Source: a virus
Taxonomy: Duplodnaviria > Heunggongvirae > Uroviricota > Caudoviricetes
Reading direction: 5' to 3' (one strand)
IMG/VR virus record: IMGVR_UViG_2737471866_000010
DNA: 37,527 nt
The first letter of the stretch is position 1, and each line of letters starts with the position of its first letter. Shown here in pieces: positions 7,890-23,269 of the stretch. Made by a program: the position numbers and the translations under genes. Below the pieces are notes generated by a model, which worked only from the letters and a program-made list of their open reading frames with translations, was not told the DNA's origin and ran no database searches.

Positions 7890-8064
7890 GTGTGCGTTTC
7901 TCCTGCTCTATCCTGTTTGCCTGACTGACCAGCAAGGGAATTTCACTGATCGGCATATTCAGCAATTCGAAGGGATTAATGCGCCAGTAGCTGGCGCAGT
8001 CAAAGAAGCGATCAGTGAGGTATTCAGCCGTCAGGCCTGGAGGAAAAAACCAGCCACAAGCCAC
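7882..8064 (-). CDS. Candidate frameshift extension of the tail assembly chaperone
   Basis: 60-aa ORF in a different frame overlapping the 3' end of ORF 8031..8300 and the tape measure start. Confidence 0.3.
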   Translation of the reverse strand: MACGWFFPPGLTAEYLTDRFFDCASYWRINPFELLNMPISEIPLLVSQANRIEQEKRTHG

Positions 8065-8300
8065 GCCGCAGCATTCAGGTCTGCCGGAGACATCTGGTCG
8101 ACAGAGCTTTGCGGCACTTTCGCCAGCCGCACAATGTATTTCGACACCACATGCGCCAGAAGTCTGACGGACTCATCCTGATTCATCTGGTAGGGATACC
8201 CCAGCTCGCGGACATCCTTCCCGGTGGGTTCATCAAACTCCAGTACGGAGAGTGTCTCACCATGAGCGATAATCGGTTTCTTTAACTCAAGCTCTTTCAT
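8031..8300 (-). CDS. Tail assembly chaperone
   Basis: 89-aa ORF between the tail tube and tape measure genes. Confidence 0.5.
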   Translation of the reverse strand: MKELELKKPIIAHGETLSVLEFDEPTGKDVRELGYPYQMNQDESVRLLAHVVSKYIVRLAKVPQSSVDQMSPADLNAAAWLVAGFFLQA

Positions 8301-8656
8301 TACTGGTAATCCCCTTCTTCACCGTGGAACTCAAGATCAACCGTCCCTTCTTCGGCATTATGGTTCGCTTCTCCGTGCAGCCAGGCGGACGACAATACAT
8401 AGACCTGACCGTTCGCCAGCTCGGCAGTGATGGTCATCTCATCAGACGAGGTGATTTTGCTCACCGGAAAATTCTTCGGCACCTTGAAGGTCCCTTTGAC
8501 ATAAGGCGCACGGTGAGTTTCCTTGCGGTCCACTGAACCGTCCAGGCCGATGATGTCATCATTGACCGTCCTGTTCATGGGCACCTCAATGCCGCCGGTC
8601 AGCGATAGCTGCTGACCGTCAATTTTGAAATAACAGGTTCCCCCGATACGGGCCAT
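8300..8656 (-). CDS. Tail tube protein
   Basis: 118-aa ORF directly after the sheath gene, 1-nt overlap. Confidence 0.6.
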   Translation of the reverse strand: MARIGGTCYFKIDGQQLSLTGGIEVPMNRTVNDDIIGLDGSVDRKETHRAPYVKGTFKVPKNFPVSKITSSDEMTITAELANGQVYVLSSAWLHGEANHNAEEGTVDLEFHGEEGDYQ

Positions 8657-18397: not shown

Positions 18398-19087
18398 TTA
18401 AATCTTTGTTCGCTGATAATCAGCAGAATCAATTAAATTATACATACCATTCATATCATGCTCATAATGATATTCAGATACATACGAATACCCCAATATA
18501 CTCTCATAAGTCAAAACGACCCGAAAATTTTCAGGCACATCTCCAGCATTTATTTTATTTTTAGGAAGTTTAATTGTGCCATTGCTACTTCTAAAAAAAT
18601 GCGAGTTATATTCCCCGATAGGAGGTTCAAAAGTTAAGCTTATATTTTTCGCTGTTTTACCATCACTAAATACCGACCAATTATACTCATACTGATCACC
18701 ACTTTTAACTGACCATCCCAGATTCGACATATATAGATCAGGCTTCGTTTCTTTTTCTCTTTCCAGCCTTTCTGTCATGGCTTTGATTGATTCATTTTCT
18801 AATTGCTGTTTAGAAACGGAAACCATCTCTTTATATTGTTCGACTGAGTTTTTCAACTCAGTGGCTTGTAACTTTAACGCTTCAGTATTTTGCTGTAGTT
18901 CTTTTTGTTGCTGTAAATACCCAAGCACAAGCCAAAAAAAGGCCACTGGGGAAAATGCACCAGCAAGAAAATCTCCAAACTCATTCCACGACGTCATCTG
19001 GTTCAAATCAAGAACATGGATCGTAATACCTAAGCCAAAGAAATAAACGACACTAACTAAAACACCGCACCCAAAAATTCTCATCAT
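18398..19087 (-). CDS. Membrane protein moron (two N-terminal TM helices, coiled coil, C-terminal globular domain); function unknown
   Basis: Start at ATGATG (M9 of ORF 18398..19111) preceded by GGGGAGAGA; visibly AT-rich; own terminator; inserted between Rz and HNH. Confidence 0.55.
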   Translation of the reverse strand: MMRIFGCGVLVSVVYFFGLGITIHVLDLNQMTSWNEFGDFLAGAFSPVAFFWLVLGYLQQQKELQQNTEALKLQATELKNSVEQYKEMVSVSKQQLENESIKAMTERLEREKETKPDLYMSNLGWSVKSGDQYEYNWSVFSDGKTAKNISLTFEPPIGEYNSHFFRSSNGTIKLPKNKINAGDVPENFRVVLTYESILGYSYVSEYHYEHDMNGMYNLIDSADYQRTKI

Positions 19088-19135
19088 TCTCTCCCCATTT
19101 GGAGAAAACATTTAACAACTGTCAAATAGTCAAGG

Positions 19136-20060: not shown

Positions 20061-20387
20061 TTACTCCTTAGAGCCACCAAATTTGTTACCGATTACTCGC
20101 ATTGCAGCCCCACGAATAGCATCGACACCGATCAGTCCCACCCCACCACCAATGGCAACAGATAGTGATTTAGGCCATCCGACATACTCAAGAGCGGATG
20201 CAAAAGTCAGCGTCAGAGCGCCACAGAGTAGAATTTCGAGTGTTTTTCGCTTCCAGCCGCCACCACCGCCAAAATAGGCAATACGTAAACCAGCCATAAC
20301 AATCGACATAATCACTGCGCCCAGCGGTGTGTCTCCACGCCACCAGCTCTGGACCAACTCCAGCCAGGTATTTGGGTTATGAGGCAT
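20061..20387 (-). CDS. S: Holin (lambda S-like class I)
   Basis: 108-aa ORF with hydrophobic helices and charged C-terminus, directly upstream of the endolysin. Confidence 0.7.
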   Translation of the reverse strand: MPHNPNTWLELVQSWWRGDTPLGAVIMSIVMAGLRIAYFGGGGGWKRKTLEILLCGALTLTFASALEYVGWPKSLSVAIGGGVGLIGVDAIRGAAMRVIGNKFGGSKE

Positions 20388-20539
20388 TTGTAGTTATCTC
20401 TCACCTCGCTGATACAGCAGGTGCAAATTGAGGGAACATCATGTACAGCAAATTAGAAGCGGAAACGTCAAAGAAGCCGAACCAATGGATAACTGCGGAA
20501 TAGACCAGGACCAACTAATCCCCAGCCCCAGAAACGACA

Positions 20540-20561
20540 AAACCCGCTCAACGGCGGGTTT
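20540..20561 (-). terminator. Hairpin upstream of holin, candidate tR'-like late terminator / Q-antitermination target
   Basis: aaacccgc-tcaacg-gcgggttt, 8-bp stem, followed on the minus strand by tttgtcgtttc. Confidence 0.4.
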
Positions 20562-20677
20562 AAGCTGTGTGGCGAAGTAACCACTCTTAACAGAGTACTG
20601 TATTTTTTGCGTACGCATTAGTATTTTTTGAAGTATTATCAACACCAATTGTTCAAAACCATTAAAAGGATGTTGTT

Positions 20678-21712
20678 ATGACTGCATCAGCGACCCCCAC
20701 TAATATCACGCATAAGTTTATTGTTCACATTATGAACAAGGAACAACAGGGGTTAGCCACCATTATTCCTTGTCCTTCAGAAAAACCTGTTCAGCAAGCA
20801 TCAAAAGACCTCTCTAACGCACTTACTGAAAGGTACTCTGGGAGAGCAGGTAAAGGATATGGGAAATTTGAAGATGACCGCGATAGTTACCCTATGGGTA
20901 ATATCGTTGATGATTATTTCGTAAATAAAACACATAGTTTTTATGATACTAGTATCCGAATGATCAATCATTTAAAAGCCAGAGCCGATGATGAATCAAT
21001 GTCTACTGGTGGTTATGTAATAATTGCCCATAATGAGGTAAATGGAAATCATTATTTGATGGTTGCAATCCTAACTTCAGCAGTTGGCTCTTCAGTCCAC
21101 GATTTTGAAATTCAAGAAAGTGAATATCTAGACATTGCTAAACTTCGAGTAGCGGGACGAATTGACTTAACTGGGCGCCAGAATGGCAAAGAGAGATATA
21201 TTAGCTTTCTAAAGGGGCAAAATTCAGTAGCAGGTTATTTCAAAAAGTTTTTAGGTTGCAACGATATTCTAATTGCCAAACAAGAAACAACAAAATTACG
21301 GAATGCACTTTTAGAATTTGCTACTGAAAGAGGTTTTGAACCAGAGGCACGTGAAGAGTTCCTAAATAAGGCTCATGAAAAATTAAAAAATTTAAATCGT
21401 TCTGGTGAAACTTTCGACACTCAAATTTTTGCAAACGAGATATGGCCAACTGCTCCTGAGTTGTTAGTTGAAAAGTTAACCAATGACGATCTGGAGTTCT
21501 CTGATGGGTTCGTGCCTGATGGCAACGTTATACGTGGGCTTGTTAGTTTCAAAGGAAAGTCCAAACATTGGTCTCTGAAATTCGAGCGTGCGGCCTTGCA
21601 TGATGGCAGCGTTCTTTATGATTCAGAAAACGATAAATTGATACTTACCGAGATTCCGGATACGCTAAGATCAGAGATTTTATCAGAATTAGGTGAAGAG
21701 GATGAGCAGTAA
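20678..21712 (+). CDS. NdpA/YejK-family (NA37) nucleoid-associated protein homolog, prophage-encoded
   Basis: 344-aa ORF, AGGA Shine-Dalgarno 7 nt upstream of ATG; segments YLMVAILTSAVGSSV, YLDIAKLRVAGRIDLTGRQNGKERYISFLKGQ and C-terminal KFERAALHDGSVLYDSENDKLILTEIP align with E. coli YejK as recalled; AT-rich; plus strand, opposite to the rest of the prophage. Confidence 0.65.
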   Translation: MTASATPTNITHKFIVHIMNKEQQGLATIIPCPSEKPVQQASKDLSNALTERYSGRAGKGYGKFEDDRDSYPMGNIVDDYFVNKTHSFYDTSIRMINHLKARADDESMSTGGYVIIAHNEVNGNHYLMVAILTSAVGSSVHDFEIQESEYLDIAKLRVAGRIDLTGRQNGKERYISFLKGQNSVAGYFKKFLGCNDILIAKQETTKLRNALLEFATERGFEPEAREEFLNKAHEKLKNLNRSGETFDTQIFANEIWPTAPELLVEKLTNDDLEFSDGFVPDGNVIRGLVSFKGKSKHWSLKFERAALHDGSVLYDSENDKLILTEIPDTLRSEILSELGEEDEQ

Positions 21713-22880
21713 AAATCAGAGAACCTTCAAAGACTTAGTGACTATTTACAAGGCCGCTACATTTGCAGGTACCCTATCTGAAGCATCACTCATTCTTTCA
21801 AACGAGGAGCTCTGTGACATCATCAACGATATCACAGAGAATCCCCATGATTTTGGCATCACCCTTGAATCTGGCAACATTGAGTTAGGCCAAACTATAA
21901 CCTTACATATAACCCCCCCCAAATTACGATTGGGGCAGCTACATTTCTCTTTTAATGAGTATTTAAAAAATCCTAAAAATAGGATAAAGGAAGCCAGTAA
22001 CTTCTTTATAATCGAACTTAATTATCACAACAGGGATAAAAAGTCGCCTGCTATTATATCCAAGTACAGAGATGTTTTGAGCTTAATTACTTTATTCAAA
22101 GATTGTTCTGCTTATTTAGATGAAACAAATTTTGAATTGGTATTCGTCGAATCCAACGTACTAAAAATTCCAGTAAATTATTCTAGCGATGATCTTATGA
22201 ATGTTAATGGAGATCTGATTCATAATTTGATCGCAAACTTTGCAGAAGATACGCATAAAGATCAAAAACTTACTATTTTAGCAAGTAGTATAAAATCATC
22301 ATGTGAATCTAAAACTAAAGAAACCTCTTTTTCCTTCATGTTAAGGGATTTAGGACAACTTTATGAAAGTTATCAAAAAGGATACAAAGTATTCGTTTCT
22401 GGTTTTTCTTACGAGAAAATACTGGATCAGTTACGAGTAGCCAAAATAGAAGAGATGGGGAAAATACATAAAGTATTCAGTGACATACAAAATCAGATAT
22501 TAGGTATCCCCGTCGCAACAATTATCGTTGCGACTCAAATGAAGCAGGCTAATGGTTGGGATAGTCAAGCATTAATAAACACAGCTGTAGTGTTGGGTGC
22601 ATTGTTCTTCACTATTATGATTATATTTGTTCTATTTAATCAATGGCAAACTTTAACAGCAATAAATGATGAGTTAAATCATAAAAAACAACAAGCAGAA
22701 TATAACTTCAAGGCTATTTACGAAGATATAAAGGATACATTTGATAGTTTAACCACAAGATTGCTTGTTCAGAAAGTTGTTTTTGCCTCATTAGGAATTA
22801 TAGTTTTATGTGGCTTATATCTTACATTTAGATTCTACTTTTTACTTACACCTTATGCTATTACATATTTATTTAGCTGA
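21702..22880 (+). CDS. Membrane-anchored protein: ~290-aa soluble N-terminal domain plus two C-terminal TM helices; candidate effector partner
   Basis: ATG at 21702 overlaps the upstream stop by 11 nt (GTG at 21693 is an alternative start); C-terminal hydrophobic segments AVVLGALFFTIMIIFVLF and VVFASLGIIVLCGLYLTFRFYFLL. Confidence 0.6.
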   Translation: MSSKNQRTFKDLVTIYKAATFAGTLSEASLILSNEELCDIINDITENPHDFGITLESGNIELGQTITLHITPPKLRLGQLHFSFNEYLKNPKNRIKEASNFFIIELNYHNRDKKSPAIISKYRDVLSLITLFKDCSAYLDETNFELVFVESNVLKIPVNYSSDDLMNVNGDLIHNLIANFAEDTHKDQKLTILASSIKSSCESKTKETSFSFMLRDLGQLYESYQKGYKVFVSGFSYEKILDQLRVAKIEEMGKIHKVFSDIQNQILGIPVATIIVATQMKQANGWDSQALINTAVVLGALFFTIMIIFVLFNQWQTLTAINDELNHKKQQAEYNFKAIYEDIKDTFDSLTTRLLVQKVVFASLGIIVLCGLYLTFRFYFLLTPYAITYLFS

Positions 22881-22897
22881 CGGCCAATATGGCCGTC
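22879..22897. terminator. Hairpin between the convergent stops of the moron operon and Q
   Basis: gacggcc-aatat-ggccgtc in the 24-bp gap between stops at 22880 and 22905. Confidence 0.4.
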
Positions 22898-22904
22898 TAA
22901 TAAA

Positions 22905-23252
22905 TTACCCATGTATTATATATATAACTGCATCAATAAATCCCAATGCAGCTTGCAACTTTTTTCTTATAGTCCCATCAGAGCATTTTCTCTTCTTCGC
23001 AATAGTGCGTAATGAGATACCGATAACAAAGTGAGCAATGATTAGCTCATATTCTTCAGGCCTATATTTACGCAACCGAGCCACACAACTGTCTATCATA
23101 ATGCCTTCGTCATCATCACACTGAATCCGGGACTTTTTGCCATGAGGTAAAAGTCCCTTGAAGCCAGCGGCTACCGGTTGCCAGTCAACTCCGCTATTGT
23201 CTGAAGCAGCCCAAGCTCCCCAACGATCCATTACTTCATACATATCACGCAT
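22905..23252 (-). CDS. Q: Late-gene antiterminator Q (phage 82 / DLP12 QuuD type)
   Basis: Start at internal ATG (M6) preceded by GGAG; VMDRWGAWAA...AAGFKGLL...CDDD motif pattern recalled from DLP12 YbcQ/QuuD. Confidence 0.65.
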   Translation of the reverse strand: MRDMYEVMDRWGAWAASDNSGVDWQPVAAGFKGLLPHGKKSRIQCDDDEGIMIDSCVARLRKYRPEEYELIIAHFVIGISLRTIAKKRKCSDGTIRKKLQAALGFIDAVIYIIHG

Positions 23253-23269
23253 CAACTTTCTCCACAAAA

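Follow-up and report, generated by a model that had tools for sequence, protein, structure and literature searches.

The 37,527-nucleotide window analyzed here (IMG/VR virus record IMGVR_UViG_2737471866_000010) is a lambdoid prophage of Escherichia coli, integrated beside the tRNA-Thr gene near proA. Two plus-strand open reading frames (ORFs), here called ORF1 and ORF2, lie between its antiterminator Q gene and its holin gene. This pair is likely a prophage-borne, two-component anti-phage system of the class that combines a nucleoid-associated protein (NAP) with a transmembrane (TM) effector, either DS-1-like or type II PANGU-like. The class was described in 2025–2026, and the window pair is, judged by its sequence, a divergent new member with about 25% identity to DS-1. 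The first-pass annotation of the window had proposed a sensor plus membrane-effector defense, which is still the best reading of the pair. It had also presented the pair as a candidate novel, unnamed system, and this view has to be given up: both genes are remote homologs of DS-1, their architecture is that of type II PANGU, and ORF1 already appears in a published table of predicted defense genes. The two ORFs are as follows.

20678–21712, plus strand: ORF1, 344 amino acids, NA37/YejK-family protein resembling DS-1A and Pag2A, without an N-terminal zinc ribbon; putative DNA-clamp sensor.
21702–22880, plus strand: ORF2, 392 amino acids, membrane protein resembling DS-1B and Pag2B; putative effector.

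The assignment is supported by homology to DS-1, by the architecture of the two proteins, by their strict co-occurrence and co-divergence, and by their status as cargo at an insertion hotspot.

Both proteins are remote homologs of the DS-1 components

DS-1 is an experimentally validated anti-phage system from the DefensePredictor study (Science 2026), which gives no mechanism for it (PMC13092281). When a low-copy plasmid supplied DS-1 under its native promoter, plating fell by 7.6 logs for Bas1, by 2.7 logs for Bas26, and by 1.7 logs for Bas3 and T3 (PMC13092281). The system consists of DS-1A (WP_000355468.1), in which a zinc ribbon is combined with an NA37 domain, and DS-1B (WP_000150292.1), a 404-amino acid hypothetical protein (PMC13092281). 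The zinc ribbon is NinF-like, with a CxxC...CxxC pattern within residues 3–26 (Table S5 in PMC13092281).

The June 2026 release of NCBIfam contains paired models for this system, DS1_1_antiphage (NF053868, "nucleoid-associated anti-phage protein") and DS1_2_antiphage (NF053869). ORF1 matched the first with 56.2 bits (E = 2.8e-15; partial coverage, 56–247), below the equivalog cutoff of 330 bits, and ORF2 matched the second with 70.4 bits (E = 1.5e-19; residues 83–330 on positions 36–287 of the 337-position profile), below the cutoff of 315 bits. By BLASTP, ORF1 shares 25% identity with DS-1A over 197 amino acids (E = 3e-10), and ORF2 shares 28% identity with DS-1B over 104 amino acids (E = 3e-7). 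When a profile of 16 ORF2 homologs was aligned with a profile of 18 DS-1B homologs by hhalign, the match reached a probability of 98.4% (E = 6e-15, 344 columns) and ran essentially end to end, from ORF2 residues 5–360 to DS-1B residues 3–367. On this profile evidence, ORF2 is a full-length, if remote, homolog of DS-1B.

In Table S10 of the DefensePredictor study, a protein identical to ORF1 (WP_000127202.1) is entered as a "Predicted novel defense gene" with a log-odds of 9.14 (PMC13092281). Current annotation otherwise misses this branch, with RefSeq giving "hypothetical protein". PADLOC, which the first-pass annotation had named as a check, was searched in its release PADLOC-DB v2.0.0 (2023) and returned no family for either protein at E ≤ 1, which explains why that annotation had no name for the pair.

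As a separate observation, the same Table S10 contains at least two more E. coli "nucleoid-associated protein" entries among its predicted defense genes, WP_120130707.1 (382 amino acids) and WP_097733593.1 (364 amino acids) (PMC13092281). E. coli may therefore hold at least four different systems built on NAPs.

ORF1 is a full-length NA37 protein distinct from YejK

ORF1 matches the Pfam family NA37 (PF04245) with E = 8.3e-69 and 232.9 bits against a cutoff of 24.6, which bears out its first reading as a divergent NA37/YejK homolog. Residues 15–330 cover positions 1–324 of the 325-position profile and thus the full-length domain. ORF1 also matches the PDB structure of YejK (9be2) with E = 1.7e-19. 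Against the NCBIfam YejK equivalog model (NF001557), it scores 164.8 bits, below the curated 341, and the host has its own yejK, which stands alone elsewhere between rplY and yejL. By these scores, ORF1 is not the YejK orthologue.

YejK forms a dimeric DNA clamp with a basic 30-Å pore (PMC11229321). At the positions of its basic pore residues defined by mutation (R173/R176/K177 and R276/R280/K284), ORF1 reads Q/N/S and G/R/S, so that one of the six basic residues is kept at aligned positions. The deeper Beta- and Alphaproteobacterial members of the ORF2-coupled NA37 clade mostly carry lysine or arginine at positions 173, 276, 280, and 284. Near the pore positions, the ORF2-coupled NA37 proteins also possess conserved lysines in the motifs FLKG, YFKK, and FKGKSK.

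ORF2 combines a soluble domain, a conserved stalk, and a transmembrane region

No Pfam domain was found in ORF2, which belongs to PHROG 5023 (unknown function) with E = 9e-80. Its AlphaFold (AF2) model has a mean predicted local distance difference test score (pLDDT) of 81.8 for the whole protein and 91.6 for the N-terminal domain alone. Structure prediction, suggested in the first-pass annotation as a route to pore or effector folds, yielded a confident N-terminal domain of no known fold, a stalk, and TM helices. These parts map to the window as follows.

21702–22346, plus strand: ORF2 N-terminal α/β domain, amino acids 1–215 (α/β core at amino acids 1–180, then short helices), predicted to be cytoplasmic.
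22350–22541, plus strand: ORF2 stalk or juxtamembrane helix, amino acids 217–280, from the alignment of ORF2 homologs.
22563–22847, plus strand: ORF2 transmembrane region, from Kyte–Doolittle hydropathy and the AF2 helices 288–335 and 337–382.

The N-terminal domain contains the invariant motif D183-x-H185-xx-Q188-K189 and is a probable NAP-binding domain. It resembles LAGLIDADG/WhiA-like folds only weakly. A strongly acidic, DNA-mimicking N-terminal domain was considered for ORF2; its composition shows this property only weakly.

The stalk is a 63-residue helix and the most conserved stretch of the family, with the pattern GY..F...FSY.K..DQ...AK.EE..KIHK.FSDIQNQ.LGIPVA....ATQ.K. It is also the part of ORF2 that is best conserved against DS-1B. 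Two strong TM cores follow at about amino acids 288–318 and 352–383 (Kyte–Doolittle), separated by a helical hairpin or loop at about amino acids 319–351; an invariant N313-Q314 marks the end of the first TM helix. The first-pass description of a large soluble domain with two C-terminal TM helices therefore stands for the soluble domain and the two strong cores, but it is incomplete in that a third, weaker conserved hydrophobic segment is present at amino acids 265–280, at the end of the stalk.

The two genes are inherited as one unit

Both plus-strand ORFs, set within a minus-strand late region, have the coordinates first given for them, and the RefSeq start calls of an identical E. coli locus agree for both. 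ORF2 starts at an ATG (21702) within the 3′ end of ORF1, so that the two genes overlap by 11 nucleotides (21702–21712, ATGAGCAGTAA). An alternative GTG start at 21693 would give 395 instead of 392 amino acids. The ORF2 start is preceded by the Shine–Dalgarno sequence AGGTGA (21691–21696). This layout recurs across the family and supports translational coupling of ORF1 and ORF2, as had been proposed from the overlap.

A pattern scan with one genome per species retrieved 27 loci in Gamma-, Beta-, and Alphaproteobacteria. An NA37 gene lies directly upstream at all 24 loci that encode a full-length ORF2 homolog, usually with an overlap of 4–23 nucleotides; the remaining three, from Cupriavidus, are 5′-truncated relics. 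The pairwise divergences of ORF1 and ORF2 are closely correlated (r = 0.957; Mantel test, 0 of 2,000 permutations), which, as far as sequence comparison goes, shows that they are strictly co-inherited at the least and would fit co-evolution. The co-occurrence and co-variation that the first-pass annotation had named as a check are thus both present. In an exhaustive profile search, ORF2 retrieved 1,114 representatives at 50% identity (E ≤ 1e-3), 301 of them at E ≤ 1e-30; the effector superfamily is therefore sizeable.

The half-length matches in Cupriavidus had raised the idea of a separable C-terminal effector module, which we rejected. In these relics (loci L026–L028, about 8004–8630), 208-amino acid ORFs start mid-protein and match only the C-terminal half of ORF2. 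An unrelated gene on the opposite strand crosses the site expected for the N-terminal half, no NA37 gene lies nearby, and the contigs are plasmid-like.

Five independently sampled contexts keep the pair and otherwise differ. In Citrobacter, it occupies a lambdoid Q–holin gap with a different holin and lysozyme; in Mu-like prophages of Klebsiella and Jeongeupia, it lies directly upstream of lysis genes on the same strand; and in Methylotenera, it sits in an integrase island beside two DNA methyltransferases. The chromosome of Jeongeupia wiesaeckerbachi carries two identical copies of the Mu-like transposable prophage, each with the pair just upstream of a VanY-type endolysin gene. A colicin-domain gene (PF01024) is located a few kilobases from the pair in the same prophage region of Citrobacter (L033/L034, 12039–13265), and one Citrobacter variant also has an SLFN/AlbA_2 gene a few kilobases away, which suggests that the early region of this prophage is cargo-rich.

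These contexts bear on the possibility that ORF1 is a mobile-element nucleoid protein serving the prophage by adjusting gene expression or DNA topology, with ORF2 as an accessory partner and no role in defense. Regulatory functions are described for mobile-element homologs of NA37 proteins in the parts of the literature covered here (NdpA2, PMC8565334; foreign NAPs, reviewed in PMC6606824), and YejK itself modulates topoisomerase IV and gyrase. Such a role would, however, leave unexplained why the homologous DS-1 pair protects on its own from a plasmid, away from any prophage. The pair moreover occurs in three unrelated element types and a non-phage island, and the regulatory NdpA homologs are not characterized by an obligate membrane partner that co-evolves with them. 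We regard a purely regulatory pair as very unlikely.

The Q-proximal junction is an exchange point for defense cargo

The surroundings of the pair identify it as cargo. The GC content is 0.30–0.39 over positions 20600–23000 versus 0.48–0.58 in both flanks, in line with the AT-richness first remarked on, and all late genes around the pair are on the minus strand. The following features delimit the slot.

20061–20387, minus strand: λ-family holin gene, the first late gene downstream of the ∼93-nucleotide block (RefSeq annotation of an identical locus).
20533–20625, minus strand: conserved ∼93-nucleotide block, the left boundary of the cargo (terminator scan, fold, and four-locus alignment).
20626–20677, plus strand: upstream region specific to the cargo, containing a weak candidate promoter and the Shine–Dalgarno sequence AAGGA.
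22879–22896, strand not assigned: GC-rich hairpin of 8 bp (GACGGCCA/UGGCCGUC), between the ORF2 stop codon (22878–22880) and the Q stop codon (22905–22907).
22905–23267, minus strand: antiterminator Q gene, the right edge of the slot (Pfam Phage_antitermQ, E = 1.9e-44; RefSeq annotation).

The ∼93-nucleotide block lies upstream of the holin gene and contains a minus-strand, terminator-like hairpin (20561–20540) followed by a T-rich tail. It is probably a late-operon leader/terminator (tR′-like) module, and promoter scans detected no convincing σ70 late promoter within it. The block is common to the window, a locus with a KAP NTPase, the DS-1 locus, and a near-empty site, in which it abuts the Q stop codon directly. 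From the alignment of these four loci, it follows that the window pair, DS-1, and the KAP NTPase are alternative cargoes at one junction between the Q stop and the block. All three run convergent with Q in one common orientation and do not belong to the late transcript. In other sister prophages, the junction is occupied by a methyltransferase, an ATP-binding protein, a TIGR04255 protein with hypothetical proteins, or IS1, so that the first-pass view of the Q–holin gap as a cargo hotspot was well founded. Hence, where the Q stop meets the late leader, the lambdoid backbone has a base-precise exchange point for defense cargo.

Upstream of ORF1, the Shine–Dalgarno sequence AAGGA (20666–20670) is followed by the ATG 7 nucleotides downstream, in line with the Shine–Dalgarno sequence first noted. 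A relaxed scan yielded one candidate promoter, with a −35 element TACGCA (20612–20617), a 16-nucleotide spacer, and a −10 element TATTAT (20634–20639), matching the consensus at 8 of 12 positions; this candidate is the putative ORF1 promoter.

At the other end, the hairpin that had been seen between the convergent stops is indeed present and overlaps the ORF2 stop codon. On the plus strand, it folds with −15.3 kcal/mol (z = −4.9; none of 200 shuffled sequences was equally stable), and on the minus strand with −14.7 kcal/mol (z = −3.2). According to the terminator scan, the sequence, and the fold, it has no T-run and is therefore not a canonical intrinsic terminator.

The locus is carried, identically or near-identically (≥99.4%), by 16 of 5,426 complete E. 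coli genomes. In a phage collection of 50,697 records, 6 contained the pair, a number too small for comparison.

The proximity to the lysis cassette raises the question of whether the pair modulates holin/endolysin timing or the membrane state in the prophage's own lytic cycle. It adjoins lysis genes in lambdoid and in two Mu-like prophages, where it is on the same strand and directly upstream of holin/SLT or VanY genes, and ORF2 is a helical membrane protein. In the lambdoid contexts, however, transcription of the pair runs against that of the lysis genes and outside the Q-dependent transcript, and most sister prophages lack the pair, with unrelated cargo or nothing at that junction. One island context shows no visible lysis genes, and DS-1 is active without any lysis cassette. 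A function in lysis is accordingly highly improbable.

A second AT-rich ORF (18398–19111, minus strand; GC content 0.34–0.39) was observed elsewhere in the window. It is 237 amino acids long by the ORF list and 230 in RefSeq, lies directly downstream of an Rz-like lysis gene and upstream of the HNH/terminase genes, and encodes N-terminal hydrophobic segments and a coiled coil; it received no Pfam, PADLOC, or NCBIfam assignment. A Citrobacter relative has a DUF4145 protein in the equivalent slot, which is possibly another cargo or defense slot.

Proposed mechanism and alternatives

Because of the homology to DS-1 and the shared architecture, we adopted for the window pair a mechanism in line with its relatives, in particular PANGU. 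PANGU systems, reported in a preprint of April 2026, pair YejK-like NAPs with effectors; in type II, the NAP Pag2A is combined with Pag2B, a TM protein with an N-terminal soluble, "DNA-mimicking" domain (bioRxiv 10.64898/2026.04.06.716658). The E. coli type II system requires both genes, neither of which is toxic alone, and protects by 3–4 logs, with growth typical of abortive infection; a type II relative shows stunted growth at high multiplicity of infection (10.64898/2026.04.06.716658). Pag2A-GFP localizes to the nucleoid and becomes diffuse upon T4 infection, and the dissociation constant of Pag2A and the Pag2B N-domain is 19 nM (10.64898/2026.04.06.716658). T4 escapes the type I system through mutations in EndoII, and the authors state that the mechanism by which Pag2A activates Pag2B is unknown (10.64898/2026.04.06.716658).

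By this model, a promoter of its own would drive the pair in a lysogen, separately from the Q-dependent late operon, and the 11-nucleotide overlap would couple translation. The ORF1 dimer would act as a YejK-type clamp and be held on chromosomal DNA. ORF1 would be freed when an infecting lytic phage breaks down or remodels the nucleoid of the host, and it could then be captured by the cytoplasmic N-terminal domain of ORF2. Finally, the stalk and TM helices of ORF2 would damage the inner membrane, and the infection would be aborted before progeny are released. Anti-phage activity, release of the NAP upon T4 infection, nanomolar binding, and an abortive phenotype are features of the relatives DS-1 and PANGU-Ecu that may extend to the window pair. 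For the pair itself, we infer activity, a set of target phages, and permeabilization of the membrane by ORF2.

Several findings weigh against this reading. Both proteins miss the NCBIfam DS-1 equivalog cutoffs, and with type II PANGU the pair was compared by architecture and description rather than by sequence, so that the relationship could range from identical to merely architecturally similar. The N terminus of ORF1 (MTASATPTNITHKF...) has no Cys motif, its NA37 domain starting at residue 15. In the Enterobacterales sub-branch to which ORF1 belongs, three basic pore residues of YejK are replaced (R173 by Gln, R276 by Gly, and K284 by Ser; Q180, G282, and S290 in ORF1), and this loss may have altered the DNA affinity of the sub-branch. 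The N-terminal part of ORF2 is only mildly acidic, with a net charge of −6 (amino acids 1–180) or −5 (amino acids 1–262) and a family range of −1 to −16, values that describe composition and not surface electrostatics. Finally, a stringent σ70 scan upstream of ORF1 detected no promoter. Taken together with the supporting evidence, the pair is nonetheless probably a real defense system and a distant relative of DS-1 and type II PANGU.

Some of these deviations allow another view, in which the clade is a mechanistically distinct branch that responds not to bulk nucleoid degradation but to another signal, such as DNA or a protein of the phage. This is suggested by a NAP that lacks the zinc ribbon and half of the YejK DNA-contact basic residues, together with an effector N-domain that is neither strongly acidic nor of known fold. 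A separate proposal goes with it, namely that early-operon read-through of the induced prophage silences the cargo by antisense transcription and spares the prophage's own lytic cycle, because three different cargoes share the orientation convergent with Q. We consider the two proposals together to be unlikely.

Many abortive-infection systems resemble toxin–antitoxin modules, and an overlapping two-gene operon with a downstream membrane protein would also suit an addiction module that stabilizes the prophage, with ORF2 as the membrane toxin and ORF1 as its neutralizer. The lack of toxicity of either gene of type II PANGU, a relative in which the NAP is an activator and not an antitoxin, makes this explanation exceedingly improbable.

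Many lysis-proximal prophage morons are exclusion proteins, and ORF2 might likewise act in superinfection exclusion as a first-line block, stopping DNA entry at the inner membrane without killing the cell, with ORF1 in a regulatory or scaffolding role. The membrane nature of ORF2 would fit, as would a prophage cargo whose expression is independent of the late operon, and the 7.6-log block of Bas1 by DS-1 is compatible with exclusion and abortive infection alike. The stunted growth and the nucleoid-dependent relocalization of the NAP in type II PANGU, however, point to abortive infection, and strict coupling to a DNA clamp at every one of the 24 full-length loci is hard to square with a block of entry. 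Exclusion therefore appears quite unlikely. As a group, the rival explanations agree less well with three observations than does the NAP–membrane-effector defense system: DS-1 is active from a plasmid, the pair occurs in varied host elements, and a NAP is obligately paired with a membrane protein.

Comparison with known systems

With the chromosomal YejK/NdpA (E. coli b2186, PDB code 9be2; PMC11229321), ORF1 has the NA37 fold in common from end to end, the C-terminal dimerization region included, and is probably a dimeric DNA clamp like YejK. Whereas YejK is encoded on its own, ORF1 is always coupled to ORF2. NdpA2 of the integrative and conjugative element PAPI-1, which controls the transfer of this element (PMC8565334), is a further example of horizontally transferred NA37-family proteins on mobile elements. 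Such homologs differ from ORF1 in their role, the transcriptional control of element transfer, and no obligate membrane partner is reported for them in the literature covered here.

Type I PANGU, composed of the NAP Pag1A and the GRel toxSAS Pag1B, belongs to the same class of NAP sensors and likewise separates sensor and effector spatially. Its effector, however, is an alarmone synthetase of the cytoplasm rather than a membrane protein, and Pfam finds no toxSAS domain in ORF2. With type II PANGU, of which an E. coli representative exists, the window pair shares the bicistronic arrangement: a YejK-like NAP is encoded together with a TM protein whose N-terminal part is soluble and whose C-terminal part spans the membrane. 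Here, the differences are that the Pag2B N-domain is described as highly acidic and DNA-mimicking (DMK) whereas that of ORF2 is mildly acidic, and that the PANGU loci were chosen for their linkage to defense islands whereas the window pair is prophage cargo.

In both DS-1 and the window pair, an NA37/YejK-domain protein precedes a protein of ∼400 amino acids with a soluble N-terminal part and C-terminal TM helices. The insertion junction and orientation are the same, the DS-1 locus and the window have the Q/DUF968/KilA-N/RusA/LexA-like/PerC backbone in common with DS-1 convergent with Q, and ORF1 was flagged by the same predictor that identified DS-1. On the other hand, local identity is only about 25–28%, the ORF2-type and DS-1B-type families do not overlap in sequence searches, and DS-1A possesses a zinc ribbon that ORF1 lacks. 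The DS-1 genes lie 2 nucleotides apart, whereas those of the window overlap. DS-1 is also more frequent, occurring in 106 of the 5,426 complete E. coli genomes versus 16 for the window pair, and its activity was shown by experiment, whereas that of the window pair is predicted.

If active, the window pair would represent a second, highly divergent allele of the NAP–membrane-effector class at the prophage junction of DS-1. At about 25% identity, with and without a zinc ribbon and with and without the pore arginines, the two form a natural comparison set that could help to explain how NAPs switch their effectors and which phages are sensed.

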